A stretch of DNA of 64,000 nt. It comes from Nitrosomonas sp. (GTDB lineage Bacteria; Pseudomonadota; Gammaproteobacteria; Burkholderiales; Nitrosomonadaceae). The position numbers and the translations under genes are program-made. The stretch covers positions 25,386 to 89,385 of the forward strand of contig BQJA01000002.1 of assembly GCA_021604405.1 (NCBI GenBank), in the 5' to 3' direction. Position 1 is the stretch's first letter. Every line of letters starts with the position of its first letter. Below the pieces are notes generated by a model that searched no databases, was not told where the DNA came from, and saw only the letters and a list, made by a program, of their open reading frames with translations. Positions 39,559-56,629 of this stretch are shown one piece after another.

Positions 39559-40470
39559 TCAATATGTCTCTGGCATGAGTCCAGGCGCTTCTTTCAGCAA
39601 GAAATCTTTAAACGCCTTCGCCACCCCTGACAAACGCTTGTTCTTGCGGTAAACAATATGCCAGTACCGCATAATTGGAAAGCCCTGTACATCCAGTATT
39701 TTTAAACGGTTCGTGGCAATTTCCAGTTCTGCAGTATGCATTGATATGATACCCAGCCCCATTCCTGCCTGCACAGCCTGTTTGATCGCTTCGGTGGTAT
39801 CCGTTTCCATTCCACTGTTAATGGTGATTTTATGCTTGGCAAAGAAACGCTCCATGGCGCTGCGTGTGCCTGAGCCAGTCTCACGCAGCAAAAATATTTC
39901 CTGTGACAGCCGCTTAACGGGAATTCTGCTAATCTCGCAAAGGGGATGATCAGGTGGTGCGATCACCACCAGTGGATTCTCCATAAATGTTTCACTGACA
40001 ATGTCCAGATTTTTTGGTGGCTGTCCTATGATCGCAAGATCAGTTAGGTTATCCGCCAGTTGTTTCAAGACTGCCTCACGGTTTGAAACATTCAAACTGA
40101 CAGTCACGCCACTGTATCGCTGGCAGAATTTAGCCAATAAATGCGGGGCAAAATAATTGGCGGTACTCACCACTGAGATATTGAGTTTGCCACGTTCCAG
40201 TCCTTTTAACTCATCCAGCGCCACTTCCATATCGGACAACTGCCGTGAAATCGCGCGGCTGTACTGATACAATTCAAGCCCCGCTTCAGTCAAATAAATT
40301 TGCTTTCCGACCTGTTCAAGCAACGGCAACTCAATGTTTCCTTCAAGCTGCTTTATCTGCATGGAAACAGCCGGCTGGGTTAAATGCAACTCTGCCGCCG
40401 CACGTGAATAACTCAAATTACGGGCTACACATTCAAACACTTCCAATTGTCGCAGGGTAAGATGCATCAT
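39559..40470 (-). CDS. cbbR: RuBisCO operon LysR regulator
   Basis: HLTLRQLEVF, AAELHLTQPAVSMQ, RETGSGTR; divergent from cbbL. Confidence 0.93.
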   Translation of the reverse strand: MMHLTLRQLEVFECVARNLSYSRAAAELHLTQPAVSMQIKQLEGNIELPLLEQVGKQIYLTEAGLELYQYSRAISRQLSDMEVALDELKGLERGKLNISVVSTANYFAPHLLAKFCQRYSGVTVSLNVSNREAVLKQLADNLTDLAIIGQPPKNLDIVSETFMENPLVVIAPPDHPLCEISRIPVKRLSQEIFLLRETGSGTRSAMERFFAKHKITINSGMETDTTEAIKQAVQAGMGLGIISMHTAELEIATNRLKILDVQGFPIMRYWHIVYRKNKRLSGVAKAFKDFLLKEAPGLMPETY

Positions 40471-40499
40471 CAGTCAGTCATTACAGTAGTAATAGTAAT

Positions 40500-40515
40500 A
40501 TAAGGTAAACCTTAT
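40500..40515. promoter_or_regulatory. Palindrome ATAAGGT-AA-ACCTTAT, likely CbbR site
   Basis: Perfect 7-bp inverted repeat in the cbbR-cbbL divergent promoter. Confidence 0.5.
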
Positions 40516-40662
40516 CACATTTATTAGAATTTTTGATTTGTCCTTATAGTTAATATTCGCTATAGTTCATTTTGAGTTGAGTAATCTTGTTTGTTAATTC
40601 ACCCCCCTGCTCATTTCTGTAGCAGCAGAAAAATTGAACGGGATTTAATTGGAGAAAATGTT

Positions 40663-42081
40663 ATGGCAAAGACCTATAGTGCAGGCGTTAAAGAATACCG
40701 GCAAACCTACTGGATGCCCGAATATACCCCACTTGACACAGACATTCTGGCATGCTTCAAAATCACACCGCAGCCAGGCGTTGATCGCGAAGAGGCTGCC
40801 GCTGCAGTAGCAGCAGAATCTTCTACGGGTACGTGGACCACCGTTTGGACCGATCTCTTGACCGACCTTGACTATTATAAAGGCCGCGCCTATCTTATTG
40901 AAGATGTCCCTGGCGATGACACTTGTTTTTATGCGTTTATCGCATATCCGATCGATTTGTTCGAAGAAGGTTCCGTTGTCAACGTATTTACCTCTTTAGT
41001 CGGCAATGTATTCGGTTTCAAGGCGATCCGGGCCTTACGTCTGGAAGATGTCCGCTTCCCGATTGCTTTTGTTAAAACCTGTGGCGGCCCACCGCACGGT
41101 ATTCAGGTTGAACGTGATATTCTTAATAAATATGGTCGTGCACTGCTGGGTTGCACTATCAAACCTAAACTGGGCCTGTCCGCCAAGAACTATGGTCGCG
41201 CGGTATATGAATGCCTGCGTGGTGGCTTAGACCTGACCAAGGATGATGAAAACATTAACAGTCAGCCTTTCATGCGTTGGCGCCAACGTTTTGATTTTGT
41301 AATGGAAGCGATCCATAAAGCAGAACGTGAAACGGGTGAACGTAAAGGCCATTACCTGAATGTAACCGCACCAACGCCAGAAGAAATGTATAAGCGCGCT
41401 GAACACGCGAAAGAAATTGGTGCGCCGATTATCATGCATGACTACCTCACCGGCGGATTTACCGCGAATACGGGTTTGGCTAACTGGTGCCGTGACAACG
41501 GCATTCTGCTGCATATTCATCGCGCCATGCACGCTGTGATTGACCGCAACCCACATCATGGTATCCACTTCCGTGTATTGGCCAAGGCATTGCGCCTGTC
41601 CGGTGGTGATCACCTCCACTCAGGTACTGTAGTCGGCAAGCTGGAAGGTGACCGTGGCGCCACATTAGGGTGGATTGACCTGATGCGCGACAGTTTCATT
41701 AAGGAAGATCGGGCTCGCGGCATTATGTTTGACCAAGATTGGGGTTCCATGCCTGGCGTATTCCCAGTAGCTTCAGGTGGAATTCACGTTTGGCATATGC
41801 CTGCACTGGTTGCAATTTTTGGTGATGACGCCTGTCTGCAATTTGGTGGTGGCACACTGGGGCATCCATGGGGTAATGCAGCAGGTGCTGCAGCCAATCG
41901 TGTTGCACTTGAAGCCTGTGTTGAGGCACGCAACAGTGGCGTGGAAATTGAAAAAGAAGGCAAGGCCATCTTAACCAAAGCCGCTAAAGGCAGCCCAGAA
42001 CTTAAGATTGCCATGGAAACCTGGAAAGAAATCAAGTTTGAATTCGATACCGTCGACAAACTGGATGTTGCTCACAAGTAA
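40663..42081 (+). CDS. cbbL: RuBisCO large subunit, form IA
   Basis: [10 protein letters not shown] catalytic motif, [24 protein letters not shown]; GGAG RBS before the ATG at 40663. Confidence 0.99.
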
Positions 42082-42143
42082 TAAACCCATCTCAGCAGAG
42101 ATCGTGTGTGCGGAATATTAATTAATTAGGAGTAAAGTAAACA

Positions 42144-42500
42144 ATGTCTGAAATGCTAGATTACAAAAGCCGTTTGAGTGACCCGGGCAGTCGTAAGTTT
42201 GAAACATTTTCTTATCTGCCTGAATTGGACAAGAAACAGATTAAGAAACAAGTTGAGTATATTGTAAAAAAAGGCTGGAATCCCGCGATTGAGCATACTG
42301 AGCCAGAACACTTGATGGATAATTACTGGTATATGTGGAAGTTACCAATGTTTGGCGAAACTGAAGTAGAAAGCATTCTTGCTGAAGCGGAAGCCTGCCA
42401 CAAAGCCAATCCAGACAACCATGTGCGTTTGATCGGATACGATAATTTTGCACAAAGTCAAGGAACATCCATGGTGATCTATCGCGGCAAAACTGTCTAG
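42144..42500 (+). CDS. cbbS: RuBisCO small subunit
   Basis: [28 protein letters not shown]. Confidence 0.98.
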
Positions 42501-42519
42501 AATTTCATTACATGGCCAC

Positions 42520-42555
42520 AGCCCCCATATCCCGTAAGGGCCGGGGGCTTTTTTT
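42520..42555 (+). terminator. Intrinsic terminator after cbbS
   Basis: AGCCCCC...CCC-GTAA-GGG...GGGGGCT followed by a T run. Confidence 0.8.
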
Positions 42556-42607
42556 GAGCCTCTTTGACAAAGAAATAGAAATTTTAAAGCTAGTATAGGA
42601 GCTTTTC

Positions 42608-43411
42608 ATGAGCAAGATAATTGATCAATATCGCATCGCGACAGAACCTTACTACCACCCCGTAGGTGATGAAGTGGACTTATACAAAGCCGCTTACTCA
42701 GTACGTATGCCGATGATGCTGAAAGGTCCGACCGGTTGCGGAAAAACCCGCTTTGTTGAGCACATGGCCTGGAAATTGAAGAAACCGCTGATTACTGTTG
42801 CTTGTAACGAAGATATGACAGCCTCTGACCTGGTGGGCCGTTATCTGCTTGATGCAGAGGGGACGCGGTGGCAAGACGGTCCACTCTCTATAGCTGCACG
42901 TTATGGCGCCATCTGCTATCTGGATGAAGTGGTAGAAGCCCGGCAAGATACCACGGTTGTCATTCACCCCCTCACAGATAACCGGCGTGTATTACCGCTG
43001 GAAAAAAAAGGTGAATTAATTAAGGCACACGCCGATTTCCAAATTGTTATCTCCTACAATCCGGGCTACCAGAGCTTAATGAAGGATTTAAAACAATCTA
43101 CTAAACAAAGGTTTGGCGGTCTTGATTTTAATTACCCAGACCATGATATTGAGAGTGAAATCGTTGCGCATGAATCTGGGGTGTCACTTGACATTGCAGA
43201 AAAACTGGTCTCTATTGCTGAACGTGCGCGCAATTTGAAAGGACACGGGCTGGATGAAGGCATCTCAACCCGTATGCTGATTTATGCAGGCAGTCTGATC
43301 GTCAAGAATGTCGATGCGCATGCGGCATGCCGCGTTGCGTTAGTCCGGCCAATAACGGATGATCCCGATATGCGCGATGCCCTGGACGCAGCCGTTGCAA
43401 CTTTTTTCTAA
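42608..43411 (+). CDS. cbbQ: RuBisCO activase AAA+ ATPase
   Basis: [34 protein letters not shown]. Confidence 0.97.
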
Positions 43412-43477
43412 TTAACGATTACTTGTATCGTTTATTTATAACTCACTATCTTAATAGCGCAAACAGGTGGATAGCGT

Positions 43478-45802
43478 ATGAGCAGCCTCGATGACTACAA
43501 AGAACTACTGGAAAACCTGGAACCTGAATCAATTGCATTATTAAAAAATGCGTGGCCTGATGCCACTAAGGTTTTTTCTCCTCGCGGACTGGATAATTAT
43601 GTAAAAGGTGCCTCTGCATTGCGTAATCTGGGGCGCGGTCGCGGACTGGTGGACACCTGGATTGATGAAACACCACAAGTAGCTAGAGAAGTTGGCGAAG
43701 ATGTAATCAGTGATCTCGCCACAGCTTCATTATCACTCACGTCAAAAACTTCAAGTGCCGTCATCGAATTGATACTGGCCACTGCTCCGACCGCGGCTAA
43801 ACGGCTCGGTGATGCGCAACTATTCCAAAATTATCTGCAATTTCTGAATTCGCTGATTGCACAGGCACCGCGTGGTATCCGCCCCATGCTCGACAAGTTG
43901 GATGTGTTATTTGGACAGCTCACATTGGGTGGCCTGCGCCGCTGGGCAATGTGGGGGGCACATGCGCATCGTACTAATTATGAAGAACAAGCCAAATATT
44001 TTGGCCTGGAATCGAAAGAATCGCTGGCGATATTACAGAAAGAACGCAAAGGCACTTTGTTTGTTGATGTGCAGCGCCGCATTAACATGTATCTACGTGC
44101 TTTATGGGCGCGTGATTTTTTCATGAAACCAACCTCTGGCGACTTCGAGACACGTGAAGGCTATAAACCTTTTATCGAAAATTATCTGATACACTTACCA
44201 GATGCTTTCGACAATTATGGTGATATACCGGGCAGCGAAATTTATCGTGCAGCAGCAGCCCATGCAGCTGCCCATCTGGTTGAAACAAAGCAGCCGATTT
44301 CTGCGGAAGGTCTGAATCCGATGCAAATGGCGGTTATCTCGGTTATTGAGGATGCACGTGTTGAAGCGCTTACTATGCGCCGTTTCCCAGGTTTGCGTCA
44401 AGTCTGGGCAGCGCTACATAATGCCACGCCCGAAATGGATACCAGTATTGGTGATTATTTAAATCGTCTGGCGCGCGCTTTGCTTGATCCTGATTATCAG
44501 GATGATGATCCTTGGGTCGAAAAAGGTCGGCATCTATTTGCTCAAGCATCGGACACATTAAGCAACCATCAAATCTCATGGGAAATAGGCGTCCAACTGG
44601 CGCACAACATAAGAAACAAAAATATTCCCTTTAACCCAAGAACGGATCAACTGAACGCTCCCTACCTTGACGACAACCGCTATTTCTGGGAATTTGAGGA
44701 ATTTGACCTGAACAAATCATTGACTGCTGGCTATGAGGCACCCAAACAGGTCCGCAAGTATGTCAGCGTCATGGAACTTGCCAATGAAGTGGAAGTTGAA
44801 ACCGCGGGCGATGACGCACAGGAAATCTGGGTCATGGGAACTGAATTTTTTCCCTATGAGGATAATGGTGTTTCCTACAATGAAAAGGAAGGAAAAGAGC
44901 CTGTTTCGCCCCCTTTCCACTATGCCGAATGGGACTATCAAATTCAACTTGAACGACCTACTTGGGTGACGGTACAGGAGAAGCGCGCCAAACTCGGCGA
45001 TATACAATGTATTGATGAGATTGCCACACAATATAAACGTGAAATCTCACGCATGAAGTTTCTGTTGGACGCCATGCAGCCTCAGGGGGTGCGTCGCATC
45101 CGCAAATTGGAAGACGGCGACGAAATTGATACCAATGCTGCCATCCATGCTATGATCGATATCCGTATGGGTCTGCAACCCGATCCACGCATTATGATGC
45201 GTTCTGTCAGGAAGGTTCGCGATATCTCAGTGCTGGTATTGCTTGATTTATCCGAATCAACCAATGATAAAGTCGCCGGCCAGAAATTTACAGTGCTCGA
45301 TTTAACCCGCGAAGCCACTGTTTTATTGGCGAATGCAATTGATAAAATTGGTGACCCTTTTGCCATTCACGGTTTCTGTTCGGACGGCCGGCATGATGTG
45401 GAATATTATCGCTACAAGGACTTTGAGCAGCCCTATACCGAAATTCCCAAAGGACGGCTGGCAGGCATGACCGGGCAGCTCTCCACCCGCATGGGCGCAG
45501 CCGTCCGCCATGCCAGTCATTACCTCAAAATACAGAAATCTTCCAAAAAACTTTTATTGGTCATTACTGACGGCGAACCGGCGGATGTCGATGTCCGCGA
45601 CCCGCAGTATCTGCGTCATGATACGAAAAAAGCGGTAGAAGAAGCGACACGCAGCGGCGTTATCACCTATTGCATGAGCCTGGACCCTCGTGCTGATCAG
45701 TATGTCTCACGTATTTTTGGTGCACGCAACTACATGGTCGTTGACCATGTAGAACGATTGCCTGAAAAATTACCGGCTCTTTACGCAGGACTGACACGCT
45801 AG
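43478..45802 (+). CDS. cbbO: RuBisCO activase adaptor, VWA domain
   Basis: MIDAS DLSES, TRMGAAVRHA, ITDGEPADVD; follows cbbQ. Confidence 0.96.
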   Translation: MSSLDDYKELLENLEPESIALLKNAWPDATKVFSPRGLDNYVKGASALRNLGRGRGLVDTWIDETPQVAREVGEDVISDLATASLSLTSKTSSAVIELILATAPTAAKRLGDAQLFQNYLQFLNSLIAQAPRGIRPMLDKLDVLFGQLTLGGLRRWAMWGAHAHRTNYEEQAKYFGLESKESLAILQKERKGTLFVDVQRRINMYLRALWARDFFMKPTSGDFETREGYKPFIENYLIHLPDAFDNYGDIPGSEIYRAAAAHAAAHLVETKQPISAEGLNPMQMAVISVIEDARVEALTMRRFPGLRQVWAALHNATPEMDTSIGDYLNRLARALLDPDYQDDDPWVEKGRHLFAQASDTLSNHQISWEIGVQLAHNIRNKNIPFNPRTDQLNAPYLDDNRYFWEFEEFDLNKSLTAGYEAPKQVRKYVSVMELANEVEVETAGDDAQEIWVMGTEFFPYEDNGVSYNEKEGKEPVSPPFHYAEWDYQIQLERPTWVTVQEKRAKLGDIQCIDEIATQYKREISRMKFLLDAMQPQGVRRIRKLEDGDEIDTNAAIHAMIDIRMGLQPDPRIMMRSVRKVRDISVLVLLDLSESTNDKVAGQKFTVLDLTREATVLLANAIDKIGDPFAIHGFCSDGRHDVEYYRYKDFEQPYTEIPKGRLAGMTGQLSTRMGAAVRHASHYLKIQKSSKKLLLVITDGEPADVDVRDPQYLRHDTKKAVEEATRSGVITYCMSLDPRADQYVSRIFGARNYMVVDHVERLPEKLPALYAGLTR

Positions 45803-45987
45803 CCCGGGCACTGCTCTCCAAATTGACCGGGTAAATGATAAAATCTTATACTTTTACACGGAGTAATCGCATCCGGACAAAAACACATATCCGGTTTTTA
45901 GAAATTTTCAATTACCCAACGTGATTCGCAAAACGTTACACCACGTTACCCTGTTCAATAGAAAGAATATTTGATAGTTAAAAATAG

Positions 45988-46024
45988 AGAGAAAGAGATA
46001 TGGTTAAAACTTATCTCTTTCTCT
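45988..46024. terminator. Hairpin between convergent genes
   Basis: AGAGAAAGAGATA-N11-TATCTCTTTCTCT, a perfect 13-bp stem. Confidence 0.6.
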
Positions 46025-46124
46025 TCTGTATGAATCATCATGCCTGTCTTTGCTCAGAATTGGTTATTTAACGCTATAGCAATATGATGATAAGGGATTA
46101 TTATTTCTATTAGGTGCTACAAAA

Positions 46125-46313
46125 TTAATGTCCAGGTTTACTCGTACCGCCATATGGACGTGGATCTGCACCTTCTGCAAGGCAATTACCATTGCCATCA
46201 ATACCGAATTCACAATCCTCAATAACCATATCAGGATCACCCATATCAGCACTTCCGCAACCAGTTAAAAATAATACCAAGAGCGCCGCAGCAAAAACTG
46301 AAGATTTCATCAT
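46125..46313 (-). CDS. Small lipoprotein
   Basis: AAAGGA RBS, MMKSS plus hydrophobic core plus lipobox LTGC; 62 aa. Confidence 0.75.
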   Translation of the reverse strand: MMKSSVFAAALLVLFLTGCGSADMGDPDMVIEDCEFGIDGNGNCLAEGADPRPYGGTSKPGH

Positions 46314-46591
46314 TTTCCTTTACCAATAAAATTAAAAGATATCATTACTGAAGTTTCGCGCTTCGATTGCGTGGGTATATTTCGCATACTCTATCTCATT
46401 GAAAAACGGTATATTCATCATTAAGGTAATTCCTGCGTACAGAAGTCAATTTATAAGTGGGTGCTATTATTAATAAAAAAAACAAACCCACACAATATTA
46501 ACCTCAACTTATAGCCACTGCCTATCTTGACAATCTTAAGATAGTGAAACTTCATCTCCATTATATAACGGAATAAATCATACACTCAAGG

Positions 46592-47071
46592 TTAGCTCAG
46601 CTTAATCCAACTTAATACGCATGTGAATATTTTGCGCACAGGGTACAATTGACGCATTTTTATGATCTCAATGCTATCAAGAAGGATAGCCAGCATCTTT
46701 TCAGGATCTTATTTATTAAAGCTGCTTACGACTTCTTCTGCACACTGATCCGCTATGGCAATAAAACCTTAGTCATTGACTTTATTTCTCTTCGATAAAT
46801 AGCCCTCATCGACAGATAACAACCTATTCGTACCCTCAGCAATCACTCTTTCTGGCGTTTCCTCTGCGATATGAATCATTACAGCCTGCCGGAAAATTCA
46901 TCCATAACGGCGCGCGCCATTAAACATCTTTCATTTACTCAATTCGTGATATTCTCAGCAACAAACAGCATCCTTACACTGGACTGCGGCAGCTGCTTTT
47001 ATAAGTGTTTGCAGCATATGCGGAGAAGTCAGACTATTTTCCCAGTTAATTCTCACTGTAGCATCAGACAT
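46592..47071 (-). pseudogene. Possible decayed gene
   Basis: GGAG RBS plus ATG at 47071, then protein-like fragments interrupted by in-frame stops at 46955, 46931, 46898, 46769, 46709 and 46592. Confidence 0.3.
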
Positions 47072-47148
47072 CTCCTCTTCTCTCCGTGGTATTGATACTT
47101 TATAGTAGTCATCGAGTATTGACGTCCACAAATTATTAGCAACTATAA

Positions 47149-48609
47149 ATGAGCAACTTATTATTTGGCGCCTATGTGTTTTGCGTAATAACGTTATGTG
47201 CCTATGGCATCAACTGCTATTTCATGGTCTGGTGTTTCTGGAGAACTTATCGCAAGGAATCCGGCCGTATCCGCCAATTGATTGATACAGCTCAACCTGT
47301 ATTTGATGATACTGTTACCTTGCCACAAGTAACCACACAAATCCCGTTATATAACGAAGCAAATGTGGCGGAACGTGTGATTCGGTCTGTCGCCGCTATT
47401 GACTATCCTGCAACCAAGCATGAAATTCAAATACTCGACGATTCGACTGATGAAACCTGTGCCATTGTTGATCGAATAGTGGCATCTCTGCGTCGACACG
47501 GAAAAGATATCCATGTGCTTCGACGCGCTGAACGTCATGGCTATAAAGCCGGTGCCTTGGCTGAAGGCATGAAAGTGTGCAAAGGAAAGTTTATTGCAAT
47601 TTTTGATAGTGACTTTGTTCCGGACCCGAATTATTTACGGCAAATGCTGCCGCCACTGTTGGCTGATGAAAAATTAGCCTTTGTACAAGCACGCTGGGGT
47701 CATTTAAACAAGACATACTCTGCACTGACGCAAGCACAATGCATTGGCATTGATGGACACTTCATGATTGAACAAAGTGTGCGCGCCTTTAATGGCTTTT
47801 TCATGAATTTCAATGGCACTGCTGGTGTTTGGCGTAAACAGGCCATACGTGATGCCGGGGGTTGGCAAGCAGACACACTTACAGAAGATATGGATTTATC
47901 CTATCGCTGTCAACTGGTCGGGTGGCGCGCGAATTATTTAGTGGATGTCGTGGTTCCTGCAGAATTGCCGGAAACCTACACTGCTTTTAAAAGTCAGCAA
48001 TTTCGCTGGGCCAAGGGTTCTATTCAAACCGCGATCAAAATATATCCCAGGGTGCTTCGTTCAAATGCTGGTGTGCTGGCAAAAATCCAGGCTTTTCTAC
48101 ACTTGACCCATTACATCATCCATCCGATCATGGTCATGCTGTCAATACTGACATTACCAGTCTTATTCACGTTGGATGTCACCATACCATGGCCTTTAAT
48201 GGTATTCTGCATGCTTTGCATTCTACTCGCCATATGCGGTCCTAGTTCTCTCTATTTAACCAGTCAAATCGCAGCAAATTCAAGTATTAAACGAATATTA
48301 TTTTTACCTTTTTTAACCTGCGTCGGCGTTGGAATTGCCTTATCCAATACGCGCGCGGTTGCTGAAGCGGTGTTGAAAATAAAAAGCGGCTTTGTTCGCA
48401 CGCCTAAATATGGCTATTTAAAAAAAAACCAATATCGGGTCAACACACCTGTATTACCCCTATTTGAAATTCTGCTAGGACTCTACTGTCTGTTTAGTTT
48501 GCACTATTATTTTGCAGCAGAGAAATATCTAGTGGGACCGTTTTTGTTGATTTATGCTTGCGGTTTTTTGCTGGTGGGAATCCGCTCATTGAAAGAAAGT
48601 TTTCAATAA
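47149..48609 (+). CDS. Processive GT2, cellulose-synthase-like (CESA_CaSu_A2/CslA-like)
   Basis: QIPLYNE, DDSTD, GYKAGAL, FDSDF, FNGTAGVW, TED, QQFRW (QxxRW); N- and C-terminal TM helices. Confidence 0.93.
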   Translation: MSNLLFGAYVFCVITLCAYGINCYFMVWCFWRTYRKESGRIRQLIDTAQPVFDDTVTLPQVTTQIPLYNEANVAERVIRSVAAIDYPATKHEIQILDDSTDETCAIVDRIVASLRRHGKDIHVLRRAERHGYKAGALAEGMKVCKGKFIAIFDSDFVPDPNYLRQMLPPLLADEKLAFVQARWGHLNKTYSALTQAQCIGIDGHFMIEQSVRAFNGFFMNFNGTAGVWRKQAIRDAGGWQADTLTEDMDLSYRCQLVGWRANYLVDVVVPAELPETYTAFKSQQFRWAKGSIQTAIKIYPRVLRSNAGVLAKIQAFLHLTHYIIHPIMVMLSILTLPVLFTLDVTIPWPLMVFCMLCILLAICGPSSLYLTSQIAANSSIKRILFLPFLTCVGVGIALSNTRAVAEAVLKIKSGFVRTPKYGYLKKNQYRVNTPVLPLFEILLGLYCLFSLHYYFAAEKYLVGPFLLIYACGFLLVGIRSLKESFQ

Positions 48610-48690
48610 TGTGCTAATACAGGATAGCGCTAATTCTATATGAAAGATGCGGTAAATTGACATATCGCTGCAATCAATACTTTCCAGGCA

Positions 48691-50715
48691 ATGCTCAATT
48701 CACGACAGTTATTTTTTATATTCTCACTGGCTTTAATATTTCTTACTGGCGCTATTCATTGGACGCAATGGGCAATAGATTTTAAAGCTGTTGTCATGTT
48801 GACATCTTATGCCATCTTGTTTTTCGGCTTCATTGGTGCCTGGTTAAGCTTTCCAAACGGATTAAGTGCGGGGCAGAAAATAGGCCTCATCCTTCTTATC
48901 TCTTTACTAGCACGGATTTTAATAATGGGAATGCCGGTTTCAGATGACGTATACCGCTATCTTTGGGAAGGAAAAATCATCGCTGCCGGTGAGAATCCCT
49001 ATCAATATCCGGCGAATCATGCGCATCATGTAACATATCGTGATTCTTACTGGGAGGAAATGAACCATAAAGACAAACTAACCGCCTATCCGCCATTAGC
49101 CGAGCTTGTATTTGCTGGTGTGAGCAGCATTACCTACTCCCCTTGGGCATTTAAATTTCTATTTATCCTGGCTGACCTCTGTGTCATATGGATAATAATA
49201 AACATTTTATCGCTGCGCGGGTCCGATATACGCACTTCAATATTGTACGCATTGAACCCACTCACATTGTTCGCAATCGCCGGCGAAGCACATTTTGACG
49301 TTCTGCTGATCCTGGCAATAATGTTGTCATTACTTTGTATCGAAAAAAAAGCTTTTGCCTGGGCCTGGATCTGGCTGGGCATTGCGGTACAGATAAAATT
49401 CATTGCCGTTGTCCTTATCCCACTTTTTCTCTGGCGATGTCACTGGCGGTACGCGTGGTTCATATTTATCCCCCTGACACTTCCGTCGCTATACTTTCTG
49501 GATTCACTCCCGGGACTATTTAAAGGGCTGTGGACTTTCGGCGTAATGAACGCTTTTAATGGGCCAATACACGGACCCATTACTTATTTACTCAATGGCA
49601 ATATCGCCGTGGCTTCGTTAGTAATTTTCACGTTATTTGGATTCATCACACTTTGGACAATATGGGCCATCAAAACGCCCGCTAGAGCCGCCTATATATT
49701 GATTGCATCCCTAGTATTGTTATCACCGGTTGTGCATTACTGGTATATTTTATGGGTAATTCCCTTCGTCGCGCTTTATCCTAGCATGTCCTGGCTAGTA
49801 CTGACGCTAACCAGTGGCGCTTACTTTACCTCGATTTTCAGTGTAGAAAACGGCGCAGACTGGTTTTTGCCTTTTTGGGCAATGTGCTTAATGTGGTTAC
49901 CATTTTTATTCGTGCTGGCCTATGAGCTTAGAATGATTTTTCTGCGCAGATTCAAGTCAACCACCCTATGGAGCAAACCTGAAACGCTTGCCATCGTCGT
50001 GCCGACGCTGAACGAATATACGCACATAAAATCTTGTCTGCTTGCTTTGGCTTCGCTGGATCGACCGCCCGATGAAATCATCATCAGTGACGGCAGCTCA
50101 ATCGACCATACCGCAACAGTAGCTCGGACAATGGGTTTTCGAGTGATTGTCAGCAAACGCGGGCGGGGCGCTCAAATCAAAGCAGGCGTTGATGCGGCTC
50201 GCTCAGATGTGGTGCTGGTTATTCATGCTGATTGCACTTGCGCGAATGATGTCAGCCGGCGGGTAATGACCATCTTGGCTAAAAATCCCGATGTGGTTGG
50301 CGGTGCGATTGGACAGCGTTTCAAGACTGCTAATCCACGTATGTTAATCATTGAAATGCTCAATGATGCACGTGCAACACTGAGTGGCATCACCTTTGGT
50401 GACCAAGGTCAATTTTTTAGAACTGCTGCCGCACGAAACTGGGGCGGTTACCCAGATTATCCACTAATGGAAGATATTGAACTGAGCCTGCGAATGATGC
50501 AGACGGGGCGCGTAGTATTACTGGGCGAAGGTATCCAGAACTCTGCTCGGCAGTGGCGCGATGATTTCATTAAACGCGTGCTGCTAATTCTAAAATTTGT
50601 CATTGTTTTCAGGTTGAGTCGCTTGTTTAATCGCAATGTGACCGAGAAGCTGAGCGCGATGTATTACAAAAATAACAGAACGAATAAACATAAAACCATC
50701 CGCCACCATAATTAA
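48691..50715 (+). CDS. Apparent fusion of a GT-C (GT87/DUF2029-like) polytopic glycosyltransferase and a GT-A TIGR04283-like domain
   Basis: N-part: SDDVYRYLWEG...NPY...NH...TAYPP, YALNPL, HFD and many TMs. C-part: VVPTLNE, DGSSIDHT, GRGAQ, IHAD, FGDQGQF, GGYPDYPLMED. No stop between the two parts. Confidence 0.85.
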   Translation: MLNSRQLFFIFSLALIFLTGAIHWTQWAIDFKAVVMLTSYAILFFGFIGAWLSFPNGLSAGQKIGLILLISLLARILIMGMPVSDDVYRYLWEGKIIAAGENPYQYPANHAHHVTYRDSYWEEMNHKDKLTAYPPLAELVFAGVSSITYSPWAFKFLFILADLCVIWIIINILSLRGSDIRTSILYALNPLTLFAIAGEAHFDVLLILAIMLSLLCIEKKAFAWAWIWLGIAVQIKFIAVVLIPLFLWRCHWRYAWFIFIPLTLPSLYFLDSLPGLFKGLWTFGVMNAFNGPIHGPITYLLNGNIAVASLVIFTLFGFITLWTIWAIKTPARAAYILIASLVLLSPVVHYWYILWVIPFVALYPSMSWLVLTLTSGAYFTSIFSVENGADWFLPFWAMCLMWLPFLFVLAYELRMIFLRRFKSTTLWSKPETLAIVVPTLNEYTHIKSCLLALASLDRPPDEIIISDGSSIDHTATVARTMGFRVIVSKRGRGAQIKAGVDAARSDVVLVIHADCTCANDVSRRVMTILAKNPDVVGGAIGQRFKTANPRMLIIEMLNDARATLSGITFGDQGQFFRTAAARNWGGYPDYPLMEDIELSLRMMQTGRVVLLGEGIQNSARQWRDDFIKRVLLILKFVIVFRLSRLFNRNVTEKLSAMYYKNNRTNKHKTIRHHN

Positions 50716-50722
50716 CGTTTCC

Positions 50723-51127
50723 CTATTGAGTTTTAACAGGCGCTACGGGCGGTTTACAATAGACTCTGGCGGTAAACTCTTCATTGCGGCGTGCGTTTCT
50801 GATTACATCTCCACCTTCTCTGATACAAACCATGGTTGCCTGATCAAGGCTGGCAAAGTATTCATTTGACCCAGGCAGGTCGGATATCGGCGGAACGCTT
50901 TCCCTTATGCGCGCGCATACATCTGATTCATCGGGTTTAATAGGTTCGTCCACCATTGGGGGTAACGGACACAATCCACAGGGGTCGCCCGGACACAAGC
51001 ATCCTTTACACGCAGCCTGGACCGGTGCGGCAATGATACATAACCATAGCCCCATAGCAAATGGACCTATTATTTTCATCAATCCAATTAACCTAAATTT
51101 AATCATCCTCATCCTTAAAAATTCCAT
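50723..51127 (-). CDS. Secreted Cys-rich small protein
   Basis: Signal peptide ending PVQA, then CKGCLCPGDPCGLCP and three more Cys. The start may be 51106 (AAGGA upstream). Confidence 0.72.
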   Translation of the reverse strand: MEFLRMRMIKFRLIGLMKIIGPFAMGLWLCIIAAPVQAACKGCLCPGDPCGLCPLPPMVDEPIKPDESDVCARIRESVPPISDLPGSNEYFASLDQATMVCIREGGDVIRNARRNEEFTARVYCKPPVAPVKTQ

Positions 51128-51220
51128 CGAATTACGCTATTTATTTAATGTTTGTCAATTAAACACCAAAAAACTTGGACTAAATTCGCATAATCCTAAA
51201 AACCAAAACCGGACAGCGTA

Positions 51221-51244
51221 ACACTAAATGGCATTATTTAGTGT
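51221..51244. promoter_or_regulatory. Palindrome ACACTAAAT-N6-ATTTAGTGT
   Basis: Perfect 9-bp inverted repeat in a divergent promoter region. Confidence 0.35.
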
Positions 51245-51390
51245 CTAAGCTGCATGTGATTTTAACAATCAGTCGCGGCCATAGGGCAACACGCGTCAGA
51301 TCAATTCTTCAGGACTACCTAAATTCGCTACATATTATAAAACCATATAAAATGAGAACTTATGAAAATATTTTTGTCAGGAAATAAAAT

Positions 51391-52995
51391 TTGATAACGA
51401 CCGCCAATATCACGATGCAATTCGGGATAAAACCCTTATTCGAAAACGTCTCTATTAAACTTGGTAACGGCAACCGTTATGGCCTGATTGGTGGAAATGG
51501 CTGCGGGAAGTCTACGTTTATGAAGATTCTTGGCAACGATCTTGAACCGACATCCGGTAATATCAATGTTGGTAGTGGTGAGCGGGTTGGCAAGCTGCGT
51601 CAAGATCAATTCGCATTTGAAAATAATCTGGTCATTGATACCGTTATGATGGGCCATGAAGCACTATGGCATATCAAAGAGGAACGGGATGCGATTTATG
51701 CCAATCCAGATGCCTCGGAAGCGGATTATATGCATGCTGCTGAATTGGAGTCACGTTTTGCCGAATTAGACGGCTATTCCGCTGAAGCACGCGCAGGCGA
51801 ATTGTTATTGGGTGTTGGCATTCCTTTATCTCAGCATAAGAGCTCCATGCGTTCGGTAGCACCCGGCTACAAACTACGCGTATTACTCGCTCAAGCATTA
51901 TTTTCTGATCCGGATATTTTGCTAATGGATGAACCCACCAATAATCTTGACATTAATACAATACGATGGCTGGAAAATGTAATTAATGCCAGCAGCAGCA
52001 CGATTGTCATTATTTCCCATGATCGCCACTTCTTGAACAGCGTCTGCACCCATATGGCTGATCTGGATTATGGCGAAATTCGTATTTGTCCTGGCAATTA
52101 TGATGAATATATGACTTTGTCCACACAAGCTCGAGCGCGTCTGTTAGCGAACAACACCAAAAAGAAAGCCCAGATAGCCGAATTGCAAGCCTTTGTCAGC
52201 CGTTTTTCCGCCAATGCATCCAAAGCCCGGCAAGCGACCAGCCGGGCCCGACAGATTGAAAAAATAAAATTGGAAGACGTTAAGCCGTCCAGCCGTCAGT
52301 ATCCCTACATCCGCTTTGAAGTAGATGACAAGGAAAAACTGCATCGCTTGGCGGTTTCAGCTGATAATGTTAAAAAGCATTACCCTGATATGGCGCAGCC
52401 AATACTGAATAAATTTAATATCGATATCGAAGCGGGAGAAAAAGTAGCTATAATCGGCCCAAACGGTATCGGAAAAACAACGTTACTACGCTGCCTTGCA
52501 GGTGATCTGGAATTAGACATGGGTACAGTGAAATGGGCAGAGAAAGCGCGTTTAGGATATTTCCCGCAGGACCACGCAAGCGAATTTGAAACAGAACTAT
52601 CCTTGGCCGACTGGATAGCGCAATGGCGGCAAGAAAAAGATGACGATCAGGCGGTGCGCAGTACGCTTGGCAGGCTACTTTTTTCTGGTGACGAAGTCAA
52701 AAAATCAGCTCGCGTAATTTCCGGCGGCGAACAAAGACGCATGCTTTTTGGCAAACTTATTTTACAAAAACCCAATGTCTTGCTTATGGATGAACCGACC
52801 AACCATCTTGATATGGAATCGATTGAATCACTCAACAGCGCATTGGAAAAATATACCGGCACATTAATCTTTGTTTCTCATGACCGGGAATTTGTATCTT
52901 CACTCGCCAGCCGTATATTGGAAATCAATTCCAACGGAATAACTGATTTCAAAGGAAACTACGAAGATTATCTCCAAACACAGTATGCTGAATAA
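51391..52995 (+). CDS. ybiT: ABC-F family ATPase, YbiT-like
   Basis: Two ABC domains ([18 protein letters not shown]), DEPTNNLD and DEPTNHLD, no TM; ANITMQFG N-terminus. Confidence 0.9.
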
Positions 52996-53031
52996 TTTTC
53001 GTTTTCCAACTAACATGAACAATCAATCGCT

Positions 53032-53391
53032 ATGAAAATCAAATATATAAAAAACATACCCCTTTTTTCTATTTTTTTTCTGTGTAATATCCTCAACTCA
53101 TCCATTGTAATGGCCGAAGGAAGCATTGAGGCGCTTCAACAACGCGCGAATTTAGCATATGAGCAAATGATGAAGGCAAAATATAAAGCTGAAATGGCTG
53201 AAATGGAAAAGACGGATGCCGAAAAAGCGCTGCAACGCGTCAAAAAATCACTTGAGAGAGCTGAGCAGGAATCAGAAACTGTCCGAAAAAAATCAGAAGC
53301 GGCCGATTCTGCACTGAAACAAGCAGAGCAAAAATGGAACGAGGCATCTGACGCCCTTGCACATGAATGGAAAAGAAGCAGAAATAAATAA
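53032..53391 (+). CDS. Exported coiled-coil protein
   Basis: Signal-like N-terminus, continuous A/E/K/Q heptad helix. Confidence 0.72.
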   Translation: MKIKYIKNIPLFSIFFLCNILNSSIVMAEGSIEALQQRANLAYEQMMKAKYKAEMAEMEKTDAEKALQRVKKSLERAEQESETVRKKSEAADSALKQAEQKWNEASDALAHEWKRSRNK

Positions 53392-53579
53392 CCCGCATAA
53401 TCTCGATTTATGGTTTGGCACCAATCGGCCCAACGTAATGCCTAAGATAGATTTACTTCTATAAGCAGTTCTTCCACATTGACATACTAAACTTTAAAGG
53501 AAACCCGGACAAGCGCTTTGTCGTTGCAATGAATAACCGCACAGCAGCTATTCCGCGTACAGAATCATCTATATATTAA

Positions 53580-54005
53580 CTAGATCCCCCGTACCATCTT
53601 CACATGAGGAATCCCGGCGTCTAGAAAATCTTCTCCTGTCACCTGGAATCCAAATTTTTTATAAAAACCAACGGCAACAGTTTGCGCATTAAGCACTACC
53701 TGTGGAAGATGCTGTTTTTTTGCTTCGTCAAGTAGCCGACGCAGCATAGCACCACCGACACCTTTACCACGCGATTCTTTCAATACTGCCATACGTCCGA
53801 TATGCCCGTCTGGTAATAGTCTGGCCGCACCAATCGGCCATCCACACTGATCAATGGCGAGTAAATGCAAACAACCGCTGTCAAATTCATCCCATTCCAG
53901 CTCAACAGGAATATTCTGTTCTTTAATAAAAACAGTTTCTCGTACAATACGCAAATAATGACCATCATCTTGCCAGTTAGCAGTACGAATTGTATAAGTA
54001 ACCAT
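53580..54005 (-). CDS. GNAT acetyltransferase, ElaA/YjcF-like
   Basis: RETVFIKEQNIP..LEWDE.D, IGRMAVL, RGKGVG, FLDAGIPH. Confidence 0.92.
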   Translation of the reverse strand: MVTYTIRTANWQDDGHYLRIVRETVFIKEQNIPVELEWDEFDSGCLHLLAIDQCGWPIGAARLLPDGHIGRMAVLKESRGKGVGGAMLRRLLDEAKKQHLPQVVLNAQTVAVGFYKKFGFQVTGEDFLDAGIPHVKMVRGI

Positions 54006-54099
54006 GCATTTTATTTATATTTTACCCGGATCCTATTTCGCTACGTGCTTTTTTATTTCTATGCATCCTCCGACAAATTTTCGTACTTATACTGGATTG

Positions 54100-55404
<1,305 letters not shown>

Positions 55405-55453
55405 CTAAAGTCTCTGTATTCCATGTCTTGGTGAGAGTACGACAACATCCTGC

Positions 55454-56629
55454 TTACAATTCTCGAATTACCCAATCCCCACTCTGCCAGACAAGTTGTC
55501 TGTCGCAATTTGATGCGAATTGATCACTTTGTTGTCCAGGCAATTCAACGATAACAATTTCACCTGCTTGCCGAAGTTTTTTAATCTTATCTTCAAGCAC
55601 CCGATTATTTTTTTCAGATGGCGCCATAATCCCCTTGGCACAGGGTTCTGGCTTGATAAGGCGGGCTAATTCGCGCAAATCGGCACTAAATCCTGTCGCC
55701 GGCCGCGACCGACCAAATGCCTTACCGATTTCATCGTAGCGCCCACCAAGTGCAATAGCATTTGAACAACCTTTTGCATAAGCGGCAAAAACCATCCCAC
55801 TGTGATAGTGATATCCGCGCAAGTCGGCAAAATCAAACGCAATCGTGTCGACCAATGATTTCAACTCTTTTTCAACAGCCTCAAGCGCCGCCAGCGCCAT
55901 TCTTATTTCAGGCAAGTCAGGTAAAAATCGATATGCCTGGGCTAATATTTTCTTATCGCCATATAGTTCCGGTAGCAACATTAATGCTTGTTTTGTTGGC
56001 TCATCCACATACTTGCTTAAATCTGAGCACAGCGCTTTTAATGCAGCAATATCTTTCGCCTGTAAGATACGGTATAACTCGGTTTCTAATTCAGCAGGAA
56101 TAGCTGCAGTTTTAATCAATCCTCGAAAAACTGCGACATGACCAAGATCAAGATGAATTTGGCCTATTCCGGAGATAGCCAGACATTCCAGCATAAGCCG
56201 CTGTATTTCAATATCACTTTCTAGGCCAGCATGGCCAAAAAGCTCCGCACCGATTTGGAGTGGTTCACGAGTACGGGTTAATCCTGATGGCACGGTATGC
56301 AACACACTGCTTGCATAGCAAAGTCGTGTCACACCCTCACAATTCAACAAGTGTGCATCAATACGCGCGACTTGTGGCGTCATGTCGGCACGCAGACCCA
56401 TCATTCGTCCGCTCAGTTGATCAATTACTTTGAACATGTGCAATTCCATATCACTGCCCGATCCCGACAGTAAAGATTCAACATATTCCAGTAGAGGTGG
56501 ATTAACTAATTGATAGCCATGCACTAACAAAAAGTCAACAATTCGGCGACGCATTGTCTCGATATGCATTGCTTCTTCAGGCAAGATATCTTCGACATAT
56601 TCTGGAAGGAGCCAATTACGCATGCTCAA
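55454..56629 (-). CDS. hisZ: ATP phosphoribosyltransferase regulatory subunit
   Basis: WLLPEYVEDILP, LRADMTPQVARID, YHYHSG, GGRYD. Confidence 0.96.
   Translation of the reverse strand: MSMRNWLLPEYVEDILPEEAMHIETMRRRIVDFLLVHGYQLVNPPLLEYVESLLSGSGSDMELHMFKVIDQLSGRMMGLRADMTPQVARIDAHLLNCEGVTRLCYASSVLHTVPSGLTRTREPLQIGAELFGHAGLESDIEIQRLMLECLAISGIGQIHLDLGHVAVFRGLIKTAAIPAELETELYRILQAKDIAALKALCSDLSKYVDEPTKQALMLLPELYGDKKILAQAYRFLPDLPEIRMALAALEAVEKELKSLVDTIAFDFADLRGYHYHSGMVFAAYAKGCSNAIALGGRYDEIGKAFGRSRPATGFSADLRELARLIKPEPCAKGIMAPSEKNNRVLEDKIKKLRQAGEIVIVELPGQQSDQFASNCDRQLVWQSGDWVIREL

Follow-up and report, generated by a model that had tools for sequence, protein, structure and literature searches.

Enzymes of the GT-C superfamily of glycosyltransferases (GTs) draw their sugars from lipid-phosphate-linked donors, and in O-antigen glucosylation in Shigella and Salmonella, in ArnC/ArnT and in CsbB/GtcA/YfhO they act as one of three components. 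Such three-component periplasmic glycosylation combines a GtrB-like polyprenyl-phosphate GT2 enzyme, a GtrA-like flippase and a GT-C enzyme, and includes systems that handle pentofuranoses (Kelly et al. 2024, PMC11127046). The PimE paper describes a GT87 enzyme with 12 helices and both termini in the cytoplasm, in which D58 lies at the tip of the first periplasmic helix with Y62 bonded to it and in which K195, W319, H321 and H322 sit at the donor phosphate. Here we describe a locus from Nitrosomonas sp. (assembly GCA_021604405.1) in which a single open reading frame (ORF) joins a GT-C domain to a GT-A domain, directly downstream of a gene for a membrane GT2 synthase that we refer to as SYN. 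The stretch analyzed, referred to as the window, comprises 64,000 nucleotides (64 kb) of contig BQJA01000002.1 and corresponds to positions C2:25386-89385 in our numbering. The fusion and SYN constitute a widespread module found in several phyla, and to the reading that the GT-A domain makes the lipid-linked donor used by the GT-C domain of the same chain we give about even credence.

The 674-residue ORF runs from its ATG without an internal stop, as the original prediction, made from the letters of the window alone, had read it, and every motif named there can be located in the translation: SDD 84-86, YRYLWEG 88-94, NPY 102-104, YPP 133-135, HAD 512-514, FGDQ 569-572 and PLMED 591-595. Domain scans bear out the GT-C plus GT-A architecture proposed at the time. 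Pfam places residues 133-346, marginally, in GT87 (PF09594; 26.5 bits against a cut-off of 25) and residues 435-556 firmly in Glycos_transf_2 (PF00535; 69.7 bits against 23.3), the GT2/GT-A family; PF26314 (MptA_B_family) is precomputed for the cluster of the fusion and for its homologues but gave no hit in our local Pfam scan. In NCBIfam, TIGR04283 spans residues 433-637 of the whole protein with 164.2 bits, under the 182-bit cut-off for equivalogs, and the isolated GT-A domain, aligning to model positions 1-204 of 221, reaches 167.8 bits, still below it. The MptA equivalog TIGR03459 gives 28.5 bits where 439.4 are required. Judged by these profiles and by fold, the protein belongs to the broad GT-C, GT87 (marginally) and GT2 families only and lies outside TIGR04283, MptA and the DPM1-type families. 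Public records name it 'glycosyltransferase' or 'rSAM/selenodomain-associated transferase 2'.

Many assemblies of Nitrosomonas and Verrucomicrobiota encode full-length homologues (33-88% identity). When 64 fused homologues (31-84% identity) are aligned, the motifs of the GT-C and the GT-A half vary little or not at all, and the motif pattern is therefore not due to chance; together with the full-length homologues this conservation indicates that the fusion is real and that both halves are under selection. The original prediction had proposed comparing fused with split homologues, and in our survey fusion proved the dominant form. A pattern scan with one genome per species yielded at least 580 GT-C-domain relatives, the 80 closest loci of which were surveyed, their ORFs being scored by hidden Markov models built from our own alignments (counts over related genomes are not independent). 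The two domains are fused in 57 of these 80 loci, in Nitrosomonas, Verrucomicrobiota, Thermodesulfobacteriota, Fibrobacterota, Acidobacteriota and Kiritimatiellota, and lie in different frames in 2 further loci; stand-alone forms were found in Planctomycetota, Latescibacterota and others. Searching 1.84 billion representatives with the GT-C domain returned 302 clusters (50% identity) at E ≤ 1e-30, and a GT-A domain is present in 96 of the best 150 matches.

Of the 52 fused loci whose flanks are long enough, 44 have SYN as the next gene upstream, in the same orientation as the fusion, so that the two genes form a putative operon. At two Verrucomicrobiota loci SYN overlaps the start of the fusion while the remaining neighbors differ, and SYN identity between Nitrosomonas and Verrucomicrobiota or Desulfococcus (52-60%) exceeds the conservation of the fusion itself. 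In-frame SYN::GT-C::GT-A triple fusions occur among the same best 150 matches (P0295, 1159 residues, and P0299, 1147 residues), and these, with the conserved SYN linkage, argue that the three catalytic domains belong to one process. SYN matches Glyco_tranf_2_3 with 104.9 bits and also Glyco_trans_2_3 and Glyco_transf_21; by sequence, BcsA is the solved structure nearest to it (E 2.5e-22, residues 57-341), and it carries TED and QQFRW motifs. Among its 120 best homologues there is no named close relative. Architectures of the SYN type occur also in lipid glucosyltransferases.

An AlphaFold2 model of the whole chain, with the 64-homologue alignment as input, has a mean predicted local distance difference test (pLDDT) of 94.1 and a predicted TM-score (pTM) of 0.93, values that point to a defined mutual arrangement of the domains; residues 1-425, modeled separately, have a pLDDT of 95.1. 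In Foldseek the whole-chain model retrieves GT-A matches only, and GT-C matches emerge with the separate N-terminal model: PimE (9dm7) at E 6e-4 with TM-scores of 0.52/0.58, glycosylphosphatidylinositol (GPI) mannosyltransferase I (9wno) with 0.58/0.61, and further ALG6, PIG-U, PglB, EmbB and ALG9/12, with TM-scores up to 0.63. On these models the N-terminal half is a GT-C_A-type enzyme. The acidic motif of the GT-C superfamily is present: D86, R89 and Y90, like K236, do not vary among fused or stand-alone relatives, at least 90% of the sequences have S84 and D85, and the spacing of D86 and Y90 equals that of PimE D58 and Y62. In the 64-sequence alignment W351 and Y352 are invariant and H349 is found in at least 90%, and the motif H349-Y-W351-Y352 varies little among stand-alone relatives too. 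With K236 and this His/Trp cluster the domain conserves residues of the kind that hold the phosphate in PimE; the residue-by-residue correspondence, read from motif order without superposition, is a putative one.

The original prediction had placed the SDD loop in the periplasm and the GT-A domain in the cytoplasm, and had named both domains on one membrane side as the outcome that would speak against it. With helices taken from the model and means over the 64 sequences, the short 'in' loops hold 10.6 Lys plus Arg per 45 residues and the short 'out' loops 1.5 per 28.5 residues; the invariant K236, the sole conserved positive charge on the 'out' side, accounts for 1.0 of this 1.5. These counts put the two domains on opposite sides of the membrane and, with the match to the PimE fold, bear out by the positive-inside rule a predicted topology in which the N-terminus is inside, the SDD loop periplasmic and the GT-A domain cytoplasmic. 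In the model the GT-C domain has only short periplasmic loops, without a large periplasmic domain, and because its closest folds (PimE, GPI mannosyltransferase I, ALG6) act on lipid-linked acceptors its own acceptor is probably lipid-anchored.

The GT-A domain carries the motifs PTLNE 438-442, GRG 491-493, HAD 512-514 (with H512 invariant and D514 in at least 90% of the sequences), GQRF 541-544, FGDQ 569-572 and LMED 592-595, followed by W622 and the tyrosine pair 658-659. The first of the two helices that end the protein probably packs against the membrane or against the transmembrane (TM) domain. A tree of GT-A domains places the fused ones together (support 82), with the true TIGR04283 proteins as their sister group, and the fused domains branch much as they do in the GT-C tree, which is what a single ancient fusion would predict. 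The genome encodes a third TIGR04283-like GT2 some 14 kb past the end of the window (C2:103818-104543; 241 residues); with 98 bits it misses the cut-off, and its branch in the same tree is very long.

We propose that the fusion is a bifunctional inner-membrane glycosyltransferase that works with SYN. SYN would use a nucleotide sugar to build a membrane-anchored glycolipid or a lipid-linked or translocated beta-glycan. At the inner face of the membrane the cytoplasmic GT-A domain, with its HAD and MED motifs, would move the sugar of a nucleoside diphosphate (NDP)-sugar to polyprenyl phosphate, the lipid-linked sugar would be flipped by the TM domain of the fusion, by SYN or by a general flippase, and the 14-helix GT-C domain would place the sugar on the product of SYN at the periplasmic face, with D86 as base and K236 and H349 holding the phosphate. 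What we infer in this scheme is which sugar is moved, that polyprenyl phosphate is the acceptor of the GT-A domain, and which acceptor the GT-C domain uses. The main support for donor synthesis comes from loci without the fused GT-A domain. In the GT-C tree a stand-alone clade (Chthoniobacterales and Prosthecobacter) is nested among the fused forms, and at the Chthoniobacterales loci L040, L052 and L056 a ~250-residue DPM1/AglJ-like GT2, nearest to AglJ and Dol-P hexose transferases, adjoins SYN. The split metagenomic locus L020 has a GT2, a GT-C and then a 245-residue GT2 that is AglJ-, Dol-P-hexose- and PpgS-like (120, 81 and 62 bits), and L098 has an ArnC-like gene 3 kb downstream, whereas none of the 57 fused loci has a DPM1-like gene within 6 kb. 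True TIGR04283, in these cases joined to TIGR04282 in one chain, is found with the fused type (L071) as well as with the type that has a DPM1-like gene and a stand-alone GT-C (L052 with L101); what is exchanged is therefore the fused GT-A domain for the DPM1-like gene. Such TIGR04282::TIGR04283 fusions were seen at L071:7869-9170 and L101:2378-3664 (Desulfobacterales and Chthoniobacterales). ORFs of 670-726 residues in Chthoniobacterales, considered as a second type of fusion, were discarded: the genuine gene encodes ~250 residues, and the Arg-rich stretch of 420 residues at the N-terminus is an artefact of read-through.

Several findings weigh against donor synthesis by the fused GT-A domain. 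By sequence and by fold ranking it is not a member of the DPM1/GtrB/ArnC family: the DPM1-type NCBIfam models match weakly and far below their cut-offs (Dol-P hexose transferase, E 8.6e-7; PpgS, 7.7e-6; ArnC, 3.9e-3), and DPMS, GtrB and ArnC are not among the 50 best Foldseek matches of the full model. The top ranks there go to the fucosyltransferase WrtF, the Leptospira GT 6p61, PcManGT and BcsA, with K4CP, TarS and GpgS also found, and WrtF, TarS, K4CP and GpgS are enzymes with sugar or other acceptors. The domain also retains the 'MED' motif at the catalytic-base position of processive and oligosaccharide-directed GT2 enzymes, ED being typical for hydroxyl acceptors. In Chthoniobacterales the DPM1-like genes score 38-45 bits, a weak assignment drawn essentially from a single lineage, and L062 and L079 have SYN and a GT-C but no DPM1-like gene in the flank. 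As to the flippase, no protein of the whole genome (completeness by marker genes, 100%) matches the GtrA family (PF04138), while 8 of 14 control genomes gave a match in the same search; flipping may therefore fall to the TM domain of the fusion, to SYN or to a general flippase. The original prediction that one protein may both make the lipid-linked donor and transfer the sugar is supported indirectly: a DPM1/AglJ-like operon gene where the GT-A domain is missing, and none near fused loci, speaks for it, and the standing of the GT-A domain outside the DPM1 family speaks against it. This genome in which no GtrA was detected encodes at least two GT-C enzymes and two DPM1-like GT2s, and the fused GT-A domain as the sole possible donor synthase was accordingly rejected. 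The two DPM1-like genes sit in a cluster of their own on another contig (C113:382-8910) with an EpsG-family polymerase, a PMT_2-type GT-C (26.6 bits), a methyltransferase, a 401-residue ORF that is GT4-like by eye and a 586-residue polytopic protein without a family match.

A different reading of the same chain, which we think rather unlikely, dispenses with donor synthesis. The GT-A domain would put its sugar, perhaps activated by a CofC-like TIGR04282 protein, directly on a lipid or glycan acceptor at the cytoplasmic face, as a TIGR04283 enzyme might, and after export the GT-C domain would add a different sugar from a polyprenyl-phosphate donor supplied by a housekeeping DPM1-like GT2 (in Chthoniobacterales by a dedicated gene). 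The TIGR04283 lineage of the domain and the sugar acceptors of its fold neighbors favor such sequential assembly, the two other DPM1-like GT2s of the genome could supply the donor, and 2 of 3 sister Opitutales genomes retain a true TIGR04282 but encode no TIGR04283-like protein other than the fused GT-A, which fits a fused domain doing the ordinary TIGR04283 job. However, L071 and the Nitrosomonas genome hold a true TIGR04283 besides the fused GT-A, so that the fused domain is not simply a TIGR04283 enzyme; the fused GT-As group apart from the true TIGR04283 proteins; a DPM1-like gene joins the operon precisely in loci without a GT-A domain; and the DPM1-like genes of this genome belong to another glycan cluster with its own GT-C. 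To the notion that the fusion is an artefact of assembly or annotation, or a decaying gene, we give next to no credence. One relative (G108) does carry a TAA inside the matched stretch, and loci L077 and L089, from metagenome-assembled genomes, have the GT-C and GT-A domains in different frames, but the 57 intact loci come from independent assemblies that include complete genomes, the cultured strains N. marina Nm71, Nitrosomonas sp. Nm51 and Luteolibacter sp. AS25 keep the fusion intact, the catalytic motifs of both domains are invariant and the whole-chain model is a confident one. The original prediction had taken a stop in relatives as the mark of an artefact; since the fusion is intact in independent assemblies from several phyla, it is no assembly artefact.

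A further alternative concerns the sugar that is moved and fits either mechanism: the module could serve a late organoarsenical, arsenosugar-type step in the Nitrosomonas genome as well, which we consider improbable. Among the flanking ORFs of the surveyed loci, clustering recovered as recurrent neighbors ArsS (TIGR04167, 436 bits) or another radical S-adenosylmethionine (SAM) protein, sometimes fused to an ArsM-like methyltransferase, and ArsM-like methyltransferases, TIGR04282, DUF547 and a ~770-residue flavoprotein/NapH-like polyferredoxin, the typical order (L038) being ArsS, DUF547, redox protein, SYN, GT-C::GT-A, ArsM and TIGR04282. Outside Nitrosomonas, 31 of 48 fused loci have at least one such gene (ars-type, DUF547 or flavoprotein-polyferredoxin) within 6 kb, and 19 of the 48 have an ars-type gene (ArsS or a variant radical SAM protein, ArsM, TIGR04282) within that distance. 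The Nitrosomonas genome holds on contig C14 a variant arsenosugar-type cluster of its own, with a true TIGR04283 (198.9 bits, cut-off 182), an ArsM-like methyltransferase (181 bits) and a TIGR04282-like protein (105 bits), the last two below their cut-offs. The assignment of 'a role unrelated to arsenosugars' in the original prediction therefore lacks support as a general statement, although its observation that the window holds no partner gene was accurate: homologues of TIGR04282, TIGR04283 and ArsS are all absent from C2:25386-89385 apart from the fusion itself. Under the arsenosugar alternative the ArsM-like and radical SAM proteins of C14 would provide a 5-deoxy-5-substituted pentofuranose, the TIGR04282-like protein would activate it, and the fusion would load it onto the carrier and place it on the product of SYN. 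The neighborhood counts favor this, as do the retention of a true TIGR04282 in each of the three sister Opitutales genomes (elsewhere, beside unrelated genes) and, weakly, the presence of the C14-type radical SAM protein in 7 of 7 fusion-bearing genomes against 33 of 52 in the genus (p ~0.03, shared ancestry not being corrected for). Also in its favor, the product of ArsS is 5'-deoxy-5'-dimethylarsinoyl-adenosine (PMC13598754) and a mycobacterial GT-C uses a decaprenyl-phosphate-linked 5-methylthio-pentofuranose (PMC11127046). Yet ars-type, DUF547 and redox genes are absent within 6 kb of all 11 Nitrosomonas-lineage loci and all 4 sister Opitutales loci, true ArsS occurs in 13 of 121 Nitrosomonadaceae genomes and in none of the 7 with the fusion, and ArsS and ArsM are both missing from the three sister Opitutales genomes. 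The C14 radical SAM protein, too, was rejected as an ArsS (46 bits against a 300-bit cut-off), being closest to the Rv1681 family (96.6 bits); its orthologues are found in 60 of the 121 Nitrosomonadaceae genomes. In its broadest form, to which we give only a small chance, this view makes SYN and GT-C::GT-A the missing envelope-directed late stage of bacterial arsenosugar-type metabolism, in which a radical-SAM 5'-deoxyadenosyl adduct would become a 5-deoxy-5-substituted ribofuranose. CofC-like TIGR04282 would activate this sugar, the TIGR04283-like GT-A would load it on polyprenyl phosphate and the GT-C would transfer it outside onto the glycolipid or glycan of the CslA-like synthase, as a Gram-negative analogue of the methylthioxylose capping of mycobacterial lipoarabinomannan; the Nitrosomonas module would be fed by the variant cluster on C14, and the fusion could itself hand the lipid-linked donor across the membrane, explaining the absent GtrA.

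Returning to the module itself, the GT-C tree gathers the Nitrosomonas sequences in one clade (100/100) with four Opitutales sequences as sister (96/89), both nested inside a Verrucomicrobiota-dominated clade (100/100). The full-length fusion occurs in 7 of 52 sampled genomes of the genus to which the window belongs and in 0 of 69 genomes of three other Nitrosomonadaceae genera. This nesting and this patchy distribution point to horizontal acquisition of the Nitrosomonas copy. The Nitrosomonas genome disperses parts that stand together elsewhere, with SYN and the fusion on C2, DUF547 on C37 and no homologue of the flavoprotein-polyferredoxin found in the genome. By its gene content the Nitrosomonas copy is a two-gene version detached from the arsenosugar-type genes that accompany the module elsewhere, and the detached Nitrosomonas/Opitutales clade, in which true ArsS is absent, may be independent of arsenic chemistry. 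Two observations concern the neighbors in other phyla: the ~770-residue protein, a thioredoxin-reductase-like flavoprotein joined to a NapH-like membrane polyferredoxin (e.g. L036:1937-4270), is encoded immediately before the synthase in 26 loci, where a DUF547 protein often accompanies it, and ArsM-like methyltransferases fused to radical SAM proteins are encoded at L047:7892-9901 and L099:7535-10078 (Fibrobacterota and Scalinduaceae).

Table 1. Features of the fusion, of SYN and of the C14 cluster (window positions, unless a contig is given)
Feature	Position	Strand	Remarks
SYN	47149..48609	+	486-residue membrane GT2 of CslA/BcsA type; stop 81 nt before the fusion start
GT-C::GT-A fusion ORF	48691..50715	+	674 residues; ATG start; no internal stop
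GT-C domain, residues 1-412	48691..49926	+	14 TM helices, predicted as 2 N-terminal helices plus a 12-helix PimE-like core (helices from AlphaFold2 models)
Acidic motif S84-D85-D86...Y90	48940..48960	+	candidate catalytic motif where the first periplasmic loop begins; D86, R89, Y90 invariant
K236	49396..49398	+	periplasmic turn between two short helices; invariant; candidate phosphate ligand like PimE K195
Motif H349-Y-W351-Y352	49735..49746	+	may correspond to PimE W319/H321/H322
Basic cytoplasmic linker, residues 413-432	49927..49986	+	mean 4.8 Lys plus Arg per ~21 residues (64 sequences)
GT-A (GT2) domain, residues 433-662	49987..50676	+	TIGR04283-like paralogue (Pfam, NCBIfam, alignment, Foldseek, tree)
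Two C-terminal helices, residues 620-673	50548..50709	+	first hydrophobic and basic (FIKRVLLILKFVIVFRLSRL); W622, Y658, Y659 invariant
Variant arsenosugar-type cluster	C14:26443-32022		outside the window; radical SAM, ArsM-like, TIGR04283, TIGR04282-like and 714-residue proteins

The 714-residue protein of the C14 cluster appears, by eye from the sequence, to combine a membrane domain with a pyridine-nucleotide-disulfide oxidoreductase. Around the module, promoter and terminator scans gave nothing above chance, and Rfam has no match at 40000-56000. Upstream of SYN a 1.3-kb stretch of low G+C content (45803-47148; 0.377 in the 46000-46999 bin) separates SYN from a VWA-domain gene (43478-45802); it holds no ORF of 80 or more residues and no Rfam match, and it includes a 62-residue minus-strand ORF (46125-46313) with a lipoprotein-like signal (…LFLTGC). 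Downstream, a 134-residue minus-strand ORF (50723-51127) converges on the fusion with its stop 8 nt past the fusion stop; its product, rich in Cys and Pro and with a hydrophobic segment at the N-terminus, has no Pfam or NCBIfam match.

Were the preferred model of donor synthesis by the GT-A domain true, a natural single chain would make a lipid-linked sugar on one face of a membrane and use it on the other, providing a compact system to study donor hand-over across a bilayer without a GtrA flippase. The family is large (302 clusters, most of the closest of them fused) and spread over several phyla with cultivable carriers that include Luteolibacter and Nitrosomonas marina. The frequent ArsS, ArsM and TIGR04282 neighbors mark the module as a concrete candidate for late steps in the formation of arsenosugars or arsenolipids, and the detached Nitrosomonas/Opitutales version is a natural experiment on whether it needs arsenic chemistry. 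For Nitrosomonas itself the module points to an unrecognized envelope glycolipid or glycan limited to one sub-lineage of the genus.

In the literature we found nothing on this fusion, on TIGR04283 or its established biochemical function, or on glycosyltransferases in arsenosugar synthesis; what was retrieved on the topic is general background on GT-C enzymes, PimE, three-component systems and ArsS. Compared with the systems that are described, SYN resembles the processive GT2 enzymes of the plant CslA and bacterial BcsA type in its D, D, D, TED and QxxRW motifs and its N- and C-terminal TM helices, but is, at 486 residues, without a PilZ domain and without a BcsB-like partner. The GT-A domain shares the HAD, GDQ and ED motifs of the arsenosugar-associated TIGR04283 and TIGR04282 glycosyltransferases, and in other phyla the fusions cluster with ArsS, ArsM and TIGR04282; it differs from the TIGR04283 proteins in its score (164-168 bits, below 182), in forming a separate group and in having no TIGR04282 or ArsS partner in the window or near the Nitrosomonas-lineage loci. 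PimE is the best structural match of the GT-C domain, with which it shares an Asp at the first periplasmic loop, a Tyr four residues later, a Lys, a His/Trp cluster and 12 core helices with both ends cytoplasmic, and the PimE acceptor is a glycolipid; set against PimE, MptA and MptB, however, sequence identity is only 16-17%, the GT87 score is marginal, the MptA score is 28.5 against 439, and the fusion carries two extra N-terminal helices. In Mycobacterium tuberculosis the polyprenyl-phosphate-mannose synthase Ppm1 is itself fused to a membrane enzyme. That arrangement differs from the present one, in which the putative donor synthase is fused to the GT-C that would consume the donor, not to Lnt, and in which the host is a Gram-negative nitrifier. 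Like the three-component systems, the fusion is predicted to pair a cytoplasmic GT2 with an outer-face GT-C beside genes for the acceptor glycan. It departs from them in that both enzymes are one polypeptide, in that its GT2 is of the TIGR04283 and not of the DPM1/GtrB lineage, with a putative polyprenyl-phosphate step, in that its genome is without a GtrA-family protein and in that its partner is a CslA/BcsA-like synthase and not an O-antigen or teichoic acid pathway. By this comparison the module would be a new, fused variant of three-component periplasmic glycosylation that works without a GtrA flippase.

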